A stretch of 64,000 nt of DNA from Actinomycetota bacterium (GCA_047519745.1 JAPVSJ010000109.1:6326-70325); one strand, 5' to 3'. Numbered from the stretch's first letter, positions 15,243 through 30,882 are shown. Notes: generated by a model from the sequence alone, not told the origin. Program-made: numbers and translations.

Positions 15243-15869
15243 TCAATGAGCGGCCGCTAACAGCGCCAGGACCACGTACAGGTACATGCAGAGGCTAGCG
15301 AAGGCCGCGAAGGGAGCCCAGGGAGCGACGACTTTGGCGCTGTGGCTGACCCCGGTGCTGAGGTTGTGGCAGCGCCAGGCGCGGGCGGTGTGATCGGGGT
15401 AGAGACGACCGAAAAGCTCAACCGAGTCACCCGCCGCAAGGGGGAGCATCGAGGGAGCAGTGGGGTAGCGACAGGGAACCACGCCGCGCCGGGTCACCAC
15501 CATCAGCAGGCTGTGCTTGACCACCACCTGACGCTGGCTGACCCGGTATTCGACGAAGCCGGCCCAGCCACTTTTCACCAGTTCGGCCCACAGCGGCGGC
15601 CCACTCTTCGACGCACGCCGACCGCCGAACAGTCCCGAGGTCAGCATGCCCATCGCTTCCCGCCTTGGGGTCGAGATCGCCTTGAAGAGAGTCCGTACCG
15701 CGATCACCGCGAGCACGCCGAGCGCGACCGAGAAGATCGCCAGGACCCCGATCGACCCGGCCCACCATGGAACGTCACCCTTGGCCGGCGGGGTCGCCGC
15801 GATCGACCTGATCCGCCCCGCCACCGTTGGGCCTTCGGTCGGCGGAGGTGGAGGAGGTGGAGAGCTCAT
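15243..15869 (-). CDS. membrane protein, unknown function (last gene of the operon)
   Basis: Poly-Pro N-terminus, TM helix WWAGSIGVLAIFSVALGVLAVIAV and a C-terminal TM helix. Start overlaps the upstream stop by 4 nt. Confidence 0.6.
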   Translation of the reverse strand: MSSPPPPPPPTEGPTVAGRIRSIAATPPAKGDVPWWAGSIGVLAIFSVALGVLAVIAVRTLFKAISTPRREAMGMLTSGLFGGRRASKSGPPLWAELVKSGWAGFVEYRVSQRQVVVKHSLLMVVTRRGVVPCRYPTAPSMLPLAAGDSVELFGRLYPDHTARAWRCHNLSTGVSHSAKVVAPWAPFAAFASLCMYLYVVLALLAAAH

Positions 15870-16975
15870 TTCTGCGACCGCCGCAGCGATTCCATCACCA
15901 GCTCAACCGCATGCGGGGCCGCGGTCCGCCCGGGATCGTCGCTGGGCGGCTGGACATCCGGGTGGAAGGCGACGGCGACCGCCAAGGGGCCGCTGGCCAG
16001 ATCGACCACCGCGAACTGGCCGGCCAGAAAGTCACCGTCCAGGGAGCCTCCCCAGCCCGCCTTGTAAGCAGGGTTCAGCCCGGCGAAGGCCTCTCCCGCG
16101 CCCCAGTCGAGCGGGGCCGTCAGTTCGCCCGGCGCAACCTCGCGACTCACCGCTTTGGGAAGGCGCATCTCGGCGAGGACTCGATTCGAAATCGCCTTTC
16201 CGTAGACCCCGGCGGCAAGCGCCCGGGCGAAGCGAACCGCGTCGCCGATTCGCCATTCCGAGGTGCCAAGCAGCACTCCCGGCGCGAGCGGGTCGGCGAT
16301 TTCATGCTGGCTTTCCAGGTATTCGAGGCAGCTCGATTCGGGGGGCTCGACTTCCTCGCTGACCTTGGCCCGGCCCCCGGCGGCACGCAGCACTTCCGCA
16401 ACCGCCCGCCGAGCCCCCGCCGGACCAGCCCCAGTCGCCTGCTGAAGTTCGAGCACCACGCGGCGCTGCCGACAGTTCTCCGAACGGGTGATCGCCCCTT
16501 CCAGCGCGCTCTGCACCTCCGGCGTCAGGGTGTTCCCGGGCACCCCACCCCAACCCTCGGCGCGCAGGAGGCCGACCATGACGACGGCCTTGCTCATGCT
16601 CCACATCCGCATCCAACGCTTGCCGCCGTCTGGCCGGGAGGTAACGATCACGGGGTCTCGCCAGCTGGTGAACGTCGCCGCCGCCTCGACCGAGCCCCCA
16701 AGCGCGGCGGCCTGCTTGACGCCGCGCCTCAGCGCCGCAGCGATCTCAGGGCGATCGCTCTCCGGCGCTTTCCTGAGCGAGGTCGTTACGGCAGCGCCGA
16801 GCACAACGAGCCTCATGTCATGGCTCTGGCTGGCCGCGATCAGGCACATGACCACGGCGATGAGCGCGGTCATGGAGGCAGCGGCGATGCGCCGCTGCCT
16901 CCTGAGCCGCGTCGAGGCTCGGCGCGACCTCGTCAACAGGTCGTCCCAAGCAGCTCGTCGTAGCGCGGTTTCCAA
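15866..16975 (-). CDS. membrane-anchored serine hydrolase / class A beta-lactamase-fold protein
   Basis: N-terminal TM helix MTALIAVVMCLIAA, SxxK (WSMSKAVVMVGLL), SxN (RSENC) and KxG (YKAGWGG) motifs in the canonical order. The start may be a later in-frame codon. Confidence 0.65.
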   Translation of the reverse strand: METALRRAAWDDLLTRSRRASTRLRRQRRIAAASMTALIAVVMCLIAASQSHDMRLVVLGAAVTTSLRKAPESDRPEIAAALRRGVKQAAALGGSVEAAATFTSWRDPVIVTSRPDGGKRWMRMWSMSKAVVMVGLLRAEGWGGVPGNTLTPEVQSALEGAITRSENCRQRRVVLELQQATGAGPAGARRAVAEVLRAAGGRAKVSEEVEPPESSCLEYLESQHEIADPLAPGVLLGTSEWRIGDAVRFARALAAGVYGKAISNRVLAEMRLPKAVSREVAPGELTAPLDWGAGEAFAGLNPAYKAGWGGSLDGDFLAGQFAVVDLASGPLAVAVAFHPDVQPPSDDPGRTAAPHAVELVMESLRRSQK

Positions 16976-30195: not shown

Positions 30196-30249
30196 GCGTC
30201 CTCCCCAGGCGTAGTTGGCTAGTTGCGATCAGTTCTTTTTTGACGTGTC

Positions 30250-30882
30250 TTACGTCGCGTCTCGGTATCGGTAGGCACGAACCTCGGCGACCCGAATCAC
30301 GTCACCGGACTCCCATTGGAATCCCCATCTGACGATCTCGACCACGGTCTTGTCGAGCGACTCGTCCGTGGTCGGCTCGGTTCCCGCGGCAGCGTGCAGG
30401 CGTGGATCGAACTCCTCACCATTCCCCGGGGCGTACGCCTCGACGCCGTTGCGGGCCAAGGTGTCGAGCAGGCTCTCCTGCACCACCCGCAGGTCGTCGT
30501 CTCCCTCGCCGGCAACGGCCCGCATGCGCCCCACGTCGTCGTGGAGGCGAATCAGGTCGCGAACCAGGGGCAGTTGCGCATCGCGCAGCTCACCTGCGCG
30601 CAGACTCAGGTTCTCCGCGTGCAGCCGATCGACGAGATCGGACTGACGCGCAAGCAGGCGCTGTGACTCCTCGAGCCGCGCATCGAACCTTGCCACCGCC
30701 TCCCCCAGCTCGGGTGCGCCAGTGGGGGCCACTTCGTCGGCAGCAAGCAGAGTGGACTCAGCTTCCCCTCCCTCCACGCTGCTTGGCTCTGGGGTGACCG
30801 TCTCGTCGCCGCCGGGGTTAGAGCCATCACCGGCGCGTTGCGCCTTGGCCTCCCCAACCGTCTCCTCGAACGACCTTTCCAT
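30250..30882 (-). CDS. GrpE-like nucleotide exchange factor (first gene of the operon)
   Basis: LPLVRDLIRLHDDVGR..., LLDTLARNGVEAYAPGNGEEFDPRLHAA..., VVEIVRWGFQWESGDVIRVAEVRAY follow the GrpE C-terminal pattern. Confidence 0.8.
   Translation of the reverse strand: MERSFEETVGEAKAQRAGDGSNPGGDETVTPEPSSVEGGEAESTLLAADEVAPTGAPELGEAVARFDARLEESQRLLARQSDLVDRLHAENLSLRAGELRDAQLPLVRDLIRLHDDVGRMRAVAGEGDDDLRVVQESLLDTLARNGVEAYAPGNGEEFDPRLHAAAGTEPTTDESLDKTVVEIVRWGFQWESGDVIRVAEVRAYRYRDAT

Follow-up and report, generated by a model that had tools for sequence, protein, structure and literature searches.

We describe a block of ten minus-strand genes, named g1 to g10 in the order of transcription, that occupies positions 15243–30882 of a 64,000-nt stretch of DNA from an Actinomycetota bacterium (GCA_047519745.1, JAPVSJ010000109.1:6326-70325), a stretch that is referred to below as the window. 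The domain content and the gene order of the block lead us to assign it with high confidence to the GAP1-N2-type DO-GTPase systems, and within these to the HSP70/GrpE theme. This class of GTPase-centric systems, built from a DO-GTPase and a GAP1 protein, was defined computationally by Kaur, Burroughs, Iyer and Aravind (2020, eLife 9:e52696; PMC7159879), who predict it to be a nucleoside triphosphate (NTP)-gated system of biological conflict. The locus is a fresh example of this known, purely predicted class, with lineage-specific variations, and not a new system. The explanation of the whole that we favor, at a probability of about 0.6, is that the ten genes make up one operon for a GTPase-GAP1-Hsp70 system of conflict or envelope surveillance.

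The GTPases and GAP1

In the passages of Kaur et al. (2020; PMC7159879) that characterize the class, DO-GTPases belong to the TRAFAC class, have a diagnostic glutamate in Walker B, are often paired and often carry zinc ribbons or transmembrane (TM) segments, and the GAP1 protein, with N, M and C domains, is encoded after the GTPase. The GAP1-N2 systems include a fibronectin type III (FNIII)-repeat protein and are found in multicellular actinobacteria, firmicutes and other groups; where they contain two GTPases, one of the pair has four TM helices at the N-terminus, a single one at the C-terminus and ectodomains that vary. The HSP70/GrpE theme accounts for about 14% of the GAP1-N2 systems, a second HSP70 being present in some, and its FNIII protein is a fusion with DnaJ or TPR; the second HSP70 is without a peptide-binding domain in a subset of the systems only. 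A sister theme of the class uses tubulin, a cytoskeletal protein.

The GAP1 protein of the block is g5 (21893–24304, minus strand; 803 amino acids, aa), in which Pfam finds GAP1-N2 (PF20013; E 2.8e-30, 105.6 bits, cut-off 24) and GAP1-M (PF20014; E 2.7e-12, 47.2 bits, cut-off 24), followed by a fast-evolving C-terminal region of ~560 aa. The search returned 128 homologues of g5, and both domains are present in all 120 among the matches listed. The C-terminal region is conserved in length at 38–41% identity across the loci, compared with 60–65% for the N2 and M domains. Together with g3, the C-terminal two-thirds of g5 are the fastest-evolving part of the system, the slowest being the zinc ribbons of g8 and the nucleotide-binding domain (NBD) of g2.

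The gene directly upstream of g5 is g4 (24301–25473, minus strand), whose stop codon overlaps the start of g5 by 4 nt (ATGA), and all related loci, those of Clostridium among them, have the DO-GTPase gene and the GAP1 gene in this order. g4 is a putative soluble DO-GTPase of 390 aa (Pfam DO-GTPase2, E 5.4e-4) with two N-terminal zinc ribbons, for which the cysteine pairs C9/C12, C25/C33, C76/C78 and C86/C89 can be read from the sequence. Its GxxxxGK[ST], DxAGE (with the Walker B glutamate) and SKxD motifs are conserved in 25 sequences, again including Clostridium. The second GTPase, g8 (16933–19200, minus strand; 755 aa), is a membrane DO-GTPase that matches both DO-GTPase2 (E 6e-10, with a score above the Pfam cut-off) and DO-GTPase1 (E 1.4e-5), and its Walker A, DxAGE and xKxD motifs are conserved in 18 sequences. 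From the N-terminus it consists of TM segments, zinc ribbons, the GTPase domain, a further TM segment at 544–562, an acidic linker and an extracytoplasmic C-terminal domain of ~140 aa. Conservation within g8 is highest in the zinc-ribbon region, at 75%. All TM calls in this work come from a hydropathy scan, with no dedicated topology predictor; for g8 the scan gives hydrophobic segments at 11–29, 122–140, 144–162 and 544–562, and a weaker one at ~30–50 is seen by eye. The two GTPases are paralogues, with 26% identity over 311 aa (E 7e-15). Searches with the g8 sequence, and likewise with that of g9, against the PDB gave nothing useful.

Compared with the HSP70/GrpE theme as it is set out in the relevant passages of Kaur et al. 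(2020), the block shares a GAP1 with N2 and M domains encoded straight after a DO-GTPase, two paralogous TRAFAC GTPases of which one has two zinc ribbons and the other has TM anchors and an ectodomain, a protein of FNIII repeats that begins with a helical module (putatively of the DnaJ/TPR type), HSP70 and GrpE with a second HSP70, and an actinobacterial host. It differs from the theme in that the reduced substrate-binding domain (SBD) is found on g2 and not on the second HSP70, g6, which keeps the beta subdomain (SBD-beta), carries a vWA domain and is without the catalytic lysine, and also in that the J-like units of the FNIII protein g3 are without the HPD motif and have no Pfam DnaJ match. 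Since the second HSP70 without SBD is limited in the paper to a subset of systems, its absence here does not exclude membership. A VTT/DedA protein, a beta-lactamase-fold protein, the alternative glycoside hydrolase family 3 (GH3) protein and g10, all of which are discussed below, have no mention in the main-text passages of the paper that concern these systems. As judged from the sequences, all the testable defining features are present with two exceptions, GAP1-C, which was not detected, and the second HSP70, which takes another form than the SBD-less one. The initial annotation of the block had noted its likeness to the double-GTPase/GAP1 systems of Kaur et al., and the GTPase and GAP1 calls behind that likeness are borne out by the Pfam matches to GAP1-N2 and GAP1-M in g5 and to DO-GTPase in g8 and, weakly, in g4.

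Conservation of the gene order

Related loci were collected in a pattern-limited scan with one genome per species, which returned 16 loci of Solirubrobacterales/Solirubrobacteraceae and ten of Clostridium (individual loci are given L numbers below). The named homologues of g5 come from Solirubrobacterales metagenome-assembled genomes. In a tblastn search with the ten proteins the order g1-g2-g3-g4-g5 was invariant in every actinobacterial locus, 12 of the loci being complete, and protein identity to the window ranged from 36 to 89% across the 16 related genomes. Because the order recurs in 16 genomes at this level of protein identity, we judge from the sequences that the gene arrangement is far beyond chance. 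The initial annotation had taken the ten genes to belong together, and the objection that their homologues do not co-occur in other genomes fails.

Beyond the first five genes the loci vary. g8 is present in every actinobacterial locus that is long enough (the contigs of L005, L010 and L016 end before its site); it is duplicated in L006, L008, L009 and L011 and lies inverted upstream in L012 and L015. g6 is missing from L002, L003, L013 and L014, g7 is found in seven related loci and is missing from L006–L009, and g9 is found in L001, L002, L004, L014 and L015. The core of the system is g1–g5 with g8, and g6, g7, g9 and g10 are optional accessories.

The Clostridium GAP1-N2 loci share with the window a g4-like zinc-ribbon GTPase (30–32% identity), GAP1-N2 (23–31%) and a g8-like second GTPase, and in four of the ten (L018, L019, L023 and L024) there is also a match to the FNIII region at the C-terminus of g3; the genes stand in the order of the window. 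No homologue of Hsp70, GrpE, the vWA-Hsp70, VTT or g9 was detected in them by tblastn of the ten proteins. By analogy with the description of the sister theme in Kaur et al. (2020), as far as its passages on that theme go, they are probably examples of the tubulin theme.

Operon structure

The ORF listing and the junction read-out reproduce the ten tightly packed, head-to-tail minus-strand genes of the initial annotation. The genes from g1 to g4 are separated by gaps of 54, 7 and 2 nt; after the overlap of g4 and g5 described above, g5 and g6 abut (TAGATG), g6 and g7 overlap by 4 nt (ATGA), g7 and g8 by 13 nt, and g9 and g10 again by 4 nt (ATGA). In eight of the junctions the read-out agrees with the initial annotation. 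The remaining one, between g8 and g9, had been described as an overlap of up to 43 nt, which is obtained only if g9 starts at a TTG codon at 16975, whereas a start at the ATG at 16873 leaves a gap of 59 nt. The gap is the more likely arrangement because the database entry for the exact g9 protein has 335 aa, which corresponds to the ATG start. We count this junction spacing, as translational coupling, in support of one operon. Consensus scans inside the block found no minus-strand terminator-like site and no sigma-70-like promoter, which is a weak test in an actinobacterium of 70% G+C.

Upstream, the block is bounded by a divergent intergenic region (30883–31024) located 5′ of g1, with an ion-channel gene (31025–31831) in divergent orientation on its other side. 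At 52.8% G+C, compared with ~70% for the window, it is AT-rich, as had been proposed, and it is likely to be the promoter region. Comparable AT-richer leaders are also found in the near clade, in L002, L004, L005 and L014. Within the g1 leader (minus strand, window positions 30930–30975) a ATGGAGAnnTTCGGTA-like stretch (ATGGAGA-nn-TTCGGTA-like) is common to the window, L004 and L005, and the leaders of L002 and L014 have another common motif, AGTGAC...TGATTG; both motifs were picked out by eye, with no statistics for the former. Such shared leader motifs are possible operator or promoter elements.

Downstream, a G+C-rich hairpin on the minus strand (15164–15187; 10 bp with a GGAU loop), 56 nt past the g10 stop codon, is a candidate operon terminator. 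Folding of the 3′ region of the operon gives the hairpin, AGUCAGGGCC-GGAU-GGCCCUGACU, in its minimum-free-energy structure, and apart from one nucleotide at either end it is the one that had been placed at 15165–15186 as the 3′ boundary of the block. It was missed by the consensus terminator scan because it has no U-tract.

The private chaperones

The operon opens with the genes for a nucleotide-exchange factor and an Hsp70. g1 (30250–30882, minus strand; 210 aa) is a divergent GrpE (Pfam GrpE, E 5.2e-14) that scores at most 30.6 bits against the NCBIfam GrpE equivalogs, whose cut-offs are 137–266, and it is the first operon gene in 13 related loci. g2 (28501–30195, minus strand; 564 aa) is an Hsp70 paralogue with a complete ATPase domain (Pfam HSP70, E 2.7e-89). 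Its NBD, residues 12–362, aligns to Mycobacterium tuberculosis DnaK and residues 445–551 weakly match the distal half of SBD-beta; in alignment to solved DnaK structures the SBD is truncated and divergent, and the helical lid is missing. The orthologue alignment, with 13 sequences, has DLGTT, the lysine of AKRQ, NEPTAAA and DLGGGTFD conserved. We take this lysine to be the equivalent of K70 of DnaK, which is needed for ATP hydrolysis.

The second Hsp70, g6 (19883–21892, minus strand; 669 aa), is optional and combines HSP70 (Pfam, E 6.6e-93) with VWA (E 9e-16). It aligns to DnaK through the linker and the whole of SBD-beta, up to residue 465, after which the vWA domain replaces the helical lid. 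The position equivalent to K70 is A, E, Q, V, G or R in 10/10 sequences, while the remaining ATPase motifs are kept, and the metal ion-dependent adhesion site (MIDAS) motif DxSxS...T...D is conserved in nine of the ten, the tenth being unaligned at that site. Since the catalytic lysine is replaced in all ten sequences, g6 is predicted to bind ATP and to hydrolyze it poorly. The two Hsp70s share 42% identity in their ATPase domains (E 3e-61); against the NCBIfam DnaK equivalog NF001413, with its cut-off of 648, g2 scores 307 bits and g6 312 bits. The GrpE, the two Hsp70s and the vWA domain had all been called correctly in the initial annotation; what the alignments correct is the detail of the vWA-fused Hsp70, which keeps SBD-beta and is without the catalytic lysine.

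The scaffold protein g3

Between the chaperones and the GTPase g4 lies the gene for g3 (25476–28493, minus strand), a putative scaffold of 1005 aa. In an AlphaFold model made with 22 homologues (pLDDT 83.9) the protein is helical at 1–306, has a double zinc ribbon at 319–370, is helical again at 371–520 and ends in beta-sandwich repeats at 528–1000, a C-terminal array of about five FNIII-like domains. The best Foldseek matches of the model are to FNIII 7–10 of fibronectin (1fnf; E 4.3e-12). A standard Pfam search gave no family match for g3 and the double-zinc-ribbon match, at residues 322–368, is weak. Through the annotation of L027 there is a weak precomputed Pfam match to Fn3_SaeA_3rd (PF25833), and relatives match PF25834 and PF25835. 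Given this family label, a named and possibly studied relative of g3 may exist; the protein name SaeA of the Fn3_SaeA families could not be traced in the literature searched.

A profile of the first 312 residues of g3 retrieved 258 representative clusters from 1.84 billion proteins, and by its sequence relationships this N-terminal module is a conserved domain family joined to varied C-termini. Among 57 distant homologues of the module, Pfam finds DnaJ in none, a double zinc ribbon in 16, TPR or fn3 in a few and HSP70 in one. A bona fide J domain in g3 found little support: Pfam gives no DnaJ match in g3 even at E ≤5, comparison of a shallow g3 profile with five J domains by hhalign gave a probability below 4%, and a deep profile raised this to 48–70%. 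At the HPD position the g3 family reads W-[Q/D]-K. We read the N-terminal module as containing two putative J-like units without HPD.

Envelope-associated proteins

The accessory genes encode proteins that appear to reside at or beyond the membrane. g7 (19188–19886, minus strand; 232 aa) is an optional polytopic membrane protein of the VTT/DedA family (Pfam VTT_dom, E 3.2e-18) with at least four hydrophobic segments. g9 (15866–16873, minus strand; 335 aa; the reading frame is open back to the TTG, spanning 15866–16975) has one N-terminal TM segment and no Pfam match. Its AlphaFold model, made with 20 homologues (pLDDT 89, pTM 0.86), is matched by Foldseek to the class A beta-lactamases LRA-5, PER-2 and CTX-M at E ~1e-9 and a TM-score of ~0.6, and the motifs SxxK (WSMSK), SxN (RSENC) and KxG (YKAGWGG) show no variation among 20 sequences. 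On the strength of the model, g9 is a membrane-anchored protein with a class A beta-lactamase or penicillin-binding protein fold and an intact triad, and its role as an enzyme is a prediction. A g9 homologue of 53% identity is also found in L028 (9047–11074, plus strand), where it follows the gene for a 290-aa double-zinc-ribbon protein. g10 (15243–15869, minus strand; 208 aa) has a proline-rich N-terminus and two TM segments, at 40–58 and 187–205, and no family match in Pfam and NCBIfam searches; homologues with 31–32% identity are located 5′ of g1 in L006, L007, L008 and L016. With g8 this makes four membrane or exported proteins by hydropathy, where three or four had been proposed, and the calls of a VTT/SNARE_assoc protein and a beta-lactamase, made by eye, are upheld for g7 by Pfam and for g9 by the fold search.

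In L006, L008 and L009 the slot of g9 is filled by a gene for a TM-anchored Glyco_hydro_3 protein (E 1e-33 to 1e-38) that is flanked by two copies of g8 (L006:14662–20567, L008:14632–~20700 and L009:14612–~20480), and in L011 a TM-anchored GH3 gene comes after the upstream g8 copy. The GH3 proteins carry KHFPGLG and SDD motifs and the histidine of the canonical KHFPGHG is missing. In each of L006, L008 and L009 the two g8 copies are 99–100% identical in DNA sequence over the first 1800 nt and then continue into unrelated extracytoplasmic domains. Because identity over 1800 nt is followed by unrelated C-terminal domains in three genomes, the pattern suggests gene conversion, by which the cytosolic and membrane part would stay alike in both copies and the ectodomains would differ in the manner of cassettes.

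Neighboring features of the window

Several features outside the block were recorded. A tRNA-Leu(GAG) gene (14930–15018, plus strand), called by ARAGORN and absent from the Rfam gathering-threshold scan, has its 3′ end 225 nt from g10. A tRNA-integrated island was considered and rejected, as there is no direct repeat of the tRNA-Leu 3′ end and no integrase within 14–40 kb. A tRNA-Thr(CGT) gene (5242–5316, minus strand) adjoins a gene for an IS1595-family (ISXO2-like) transposase (5830–6777, minus strand), 9 kb from the operon, which is the sole mobile-element gene seen in the window. KdpD is apparently split: a gene with the KdpD sensor domain only (45939–47063, minus strand) follows kdpABC (47075–51488, minus strand), and a separate DUF4118-HisKA-HATPase kinase gene (55469–56623, minus strand), ~8 kb off, adjoins the gene for the Kup K+ transporter (56673–58634). 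An 869-aa protein encoded at 42974–45583 (plus strand) joins GNAT to an NDP-forming acyl-CoA-synthetase-like part, which is the architecture of Pat-type acetyltransferases, and the window also holds an acetyl-CoA synthetase gene (31886–33868). Acetyl-CoA synthetase is the classical Pat substrate in other bacteria.

Discussion

The biological role of the system is most likely surveillance, either against invaders or for envelope damage. Our mechanistic and functional reading is more tentative than the assignment to the class, and we would put it somewhat below an even chance. In this reading, the cytosolic g3 would use its FNIII array to bind a target or partner, while its two HPD-less J-like units would dock the private Hsp70 g2, which g1 would recycle. 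The GAP1 protein g5 would couple the g3 platform to a heterodimer of the soluble g4 and the membrane-bound g8, and the GTP state of the heterodimer would gate signaling across the membrane. The extracytoplasmic domain of g8 would be the specificity module, acting with g9 (or GH3), g7 and g10, and because its partners are envelope proteins, the state of the peptidoglycan or of the envelope would be what is read in or read out. The hydrolysis-impaired g6, an optional component, could act as a latch or adaptor by keeping hold of both a peptide and a ligand of its MIDAS. The accessory genes, by their sequences, point to the cell wall as the place of action, and the signal may run outside-in, from wall damage or ligands, or inside-out, to wall remodeling or lysis. 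Because of the cassette pattern of the g8 copies we lean toward the ectodomain as a specificity or sensor module.

A more specific version of this idea, which we consider unlikely as it stands though worth setting out, is that of a trans-envelope sensor. Specificity would reside in the g8 ectodomain and the exported peptidoglycan-type enzymes, and g4/g8 with GAP1 would convert the state of the wall or its ligands into the assembly state of the FNIII/Hsp70 platform, or the reverse; an ATPase-dead Hsp70-vWA would be the latch, and gene conversion would keep ectodomain cassettes on otherwise identical receptor genes. If true, a bacterial Hsp70 would here be used as a signaling subunit and not as a foldase.

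A number of results weigh against a surveillance or conflict system of the predicted class. With regard to class membership, the DO-GTPase2 match of g4 falls below the Pfam gathering score, no Pfam match to GAP1-C is found in g5 past residue 242, and the likeness of the g3 module to J domains is inconclusive, the deep profile giving 48–54% probability over 64 columns (about residues 25–91) and 70% over 29 columns (about residues 190–220). The FNIII array is not hypervariable in the clade, with g3 being 1003–1008 aa long in most homologues and identity even along the protein. In L028 there is no GTPase or GAP1 within 10 kb of the g9 homologue, which suggests that the g9 family is broader than the GTPase/GAP1 system. 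The literature searches, which besides the 2020 paper brought up only unrelated work on CoCoNuT systems, found no experimental study that uses the DO-GTPase/GAP1 names; the description of the block as an uncharacterized system in the initial annotation accordingly stands in the experimental sense, and it does not stand as a claim to a new class, which had already been described computationally.

Most of the genomic surroundings weigh on the same side. The neighbors in the window are ordinary chromosomal genes (major facilitator superfamily (MFS), ion channel, acetyl-CoA synthetase (Acs), metallo-beta-lactamase-rhodanese, Pat-like acetyltransferase, kdpABC, kup and nramp), and the flanks of 14 related loci, 48 ORFs in all, are mostly metabolic. 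The PADLOC models matched none of the ten proteins, by which a known defense system was rejected, and in a test for defense islands their matches among the 48 flanking ORFs were few and generic. Carriage by plasmids or phages was rejected as well, as tblastn of the GAP1 protein g5 against both collections came back empty. Exceptions among the 48 ORFs are two conjugative coupling-protein matches, one IS4/5 transposase and a pair of NUDIX and GT4-conflict genes. One of these loci, L013, has a gene for a type IV secretion coupling protein (TraG/VirD4-like; 1436–2962, plus strand) immediately 5′ of g1, and in L001 genes for NUDIX and a 'GT4-conflict' glycosyltransferase (10756–12374, plus strand) lie between g9 and the MFS gene. 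Such neighbors hint at a mobility or conflict context in some genomes, and we count those of L013 and L001, like the codon-position values that follow, in favor of the favored explanation. The G+C content at third codon positions (GC3) of the operon is 0.77–0.90, compared with 0.94–0.97 in its flanks in the window, and it is likewise below that of the flanks in L007, L009, L012 and L015, which with the window makes five genomes, and not in L002, L006 and L014. Taken together, these sequence data suggest an accessory, occasionally transferred locus, with no defense island shown.

Much of this would also fit a non-immune, lineage-specific machine of envelope biogenesis or morphogenesis, in which the GTPase switch and the chaperones steer peptidoglycan remodeling or the supply of lipid carriers when Solirubrobacterales grow, are under stress or undergo multicellular development. 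The intact triad of g9, the exported GH3 proteins of sister loci, the VTT/DedA protein and the g8 ectodomain would all have a place in it, as would the ordinary chromosomal context free of defense islands and the failure to find GAP1 in the plasmid and phage collections. Moreover, the nearest relative, L001, has the system beside the same MFS gene, the lengths of the core proteins are constant, and the sister theme in the passages of Kaur et al. (2020) uses a cytoskeletal protein, tubulin. We nevertheless give such a machine only about one chance in four, as g6, g7, g9 and g10 are gained or lost, and g8 is duplicated or inverted, among close relatives, and as the ectodomain cassettes, the atypical GC3 in several genomes and the neighboring conjugation gene are features of accessory or conflict loci; in addition, no more than 16 species representatives came out of the scan, which was pattern-limited. 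It is less probable still that Hsp70 and GrpE are mere assembly factors, active in the folding or insertion of the FNIII scaffold and the membrane GTPase complex and without a part in signaling, with the logic of the system contained in GTPase, GAP1 and FNIII. That such a core does without Hsp70 in the Clostridium loci L017–L026, that the HSP70 theme makes up ~14% of the GAP1-N2 neighborhoods according to the passages of Kaur et al. (2020) on these systems, and that g6 is dispensable in several loci would all be expected of assembly factors. However, every Solirubrobacterales locus has g1 and g2, without exception, at the head of the operon. In g2 most of the SBD and the lid are gone and in g6 the catalytic lysine, changes that speak for specialized non-foldase roles, and J-like units without HPD in g3 are easier to reconcile with docking than with folding driven by an ATPase.

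That the block is a housekeeping heat-shock operon (dnaK/grpE) placed by chance beside unrelated genes is effectively refuted, in agreement with the initial annotation. The block shares with a dnaK-grpE-dnaJ(-hspR/hrcA) operon an Hsp70 ATPase domain that has its catalytic residues, that of g2, and an adjacent GrpE-fold factor. Unlike in such an operon, g1 and g2 fall well short of the equivalog cut-offs for GrpE and DnaK, the SBDs are atypical, being truncated or replaced, and there is no repressor; Pfam and motif searches found no HPD-bearing DnaJ among the ten proteins, and neither a CIRCE nor a HAIR operator was found anywhere in the window with up to three mismatches allowed. The setting is also one of GTPase and GAP1 genes, in strict synteny over 16 genomes.

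Among other predicted conflict systems, the MoxR-vWA ternary systems, as they appear in the passages of Kaur et al. (2020), share the logic of a constant NTPase switch, a vWA/MIDAS adaptor and variable components. As for Hsp70-like modules in predicted defense, the closest other case is that of the McrBC-related CoCoNuT systems, whose Hsp70-like NBD/SBD modules are predicted to bind ATP and barely hydrolyze it (Bell et al., 2024; PMC11090510), a prediction that is shared with g6. In contrast to the present block, the NTPases of both are of the AAA+ MoxR or McrB type and not DO-GTPases, and there is no GAP1 and no FNIII scaffold. The effectors of CoCoNuTs, moreover, are nucleases and their predicted target is RNA, whereas in the present block the accessory genes encode envelope proteins.

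Few predicted conflict systems are as large as those of DO-GTPase and GAP1, and no experimental work on them was found in the literature searched. The locus is a compact and complete example of strong synteny, and it offers clear targets for point mutation, namely Walker A and the Walker B glutamate of g4 and g8, the AKRQ lysine of g2, the MIDAS of g6 and the SxxK serine of g9. A competent Hsp70 with a truncated SBD (g2) and a lysine-less Hsp70-vWA (g6) provide testable ideas for Hsp70 as part of a switch, and the exported cell-wall enzymes and the ectodomain cassettes mark where input or output may be sought. If the class is a machinery of immunity or surveillance, it would add Hsp70 and a septin- or dynamin-like GTPase logic to bacterial immunity, and if it is a machinery of the envelope, it would represent a new kind of trans-membrane GTPase signaling in actinobacteria.

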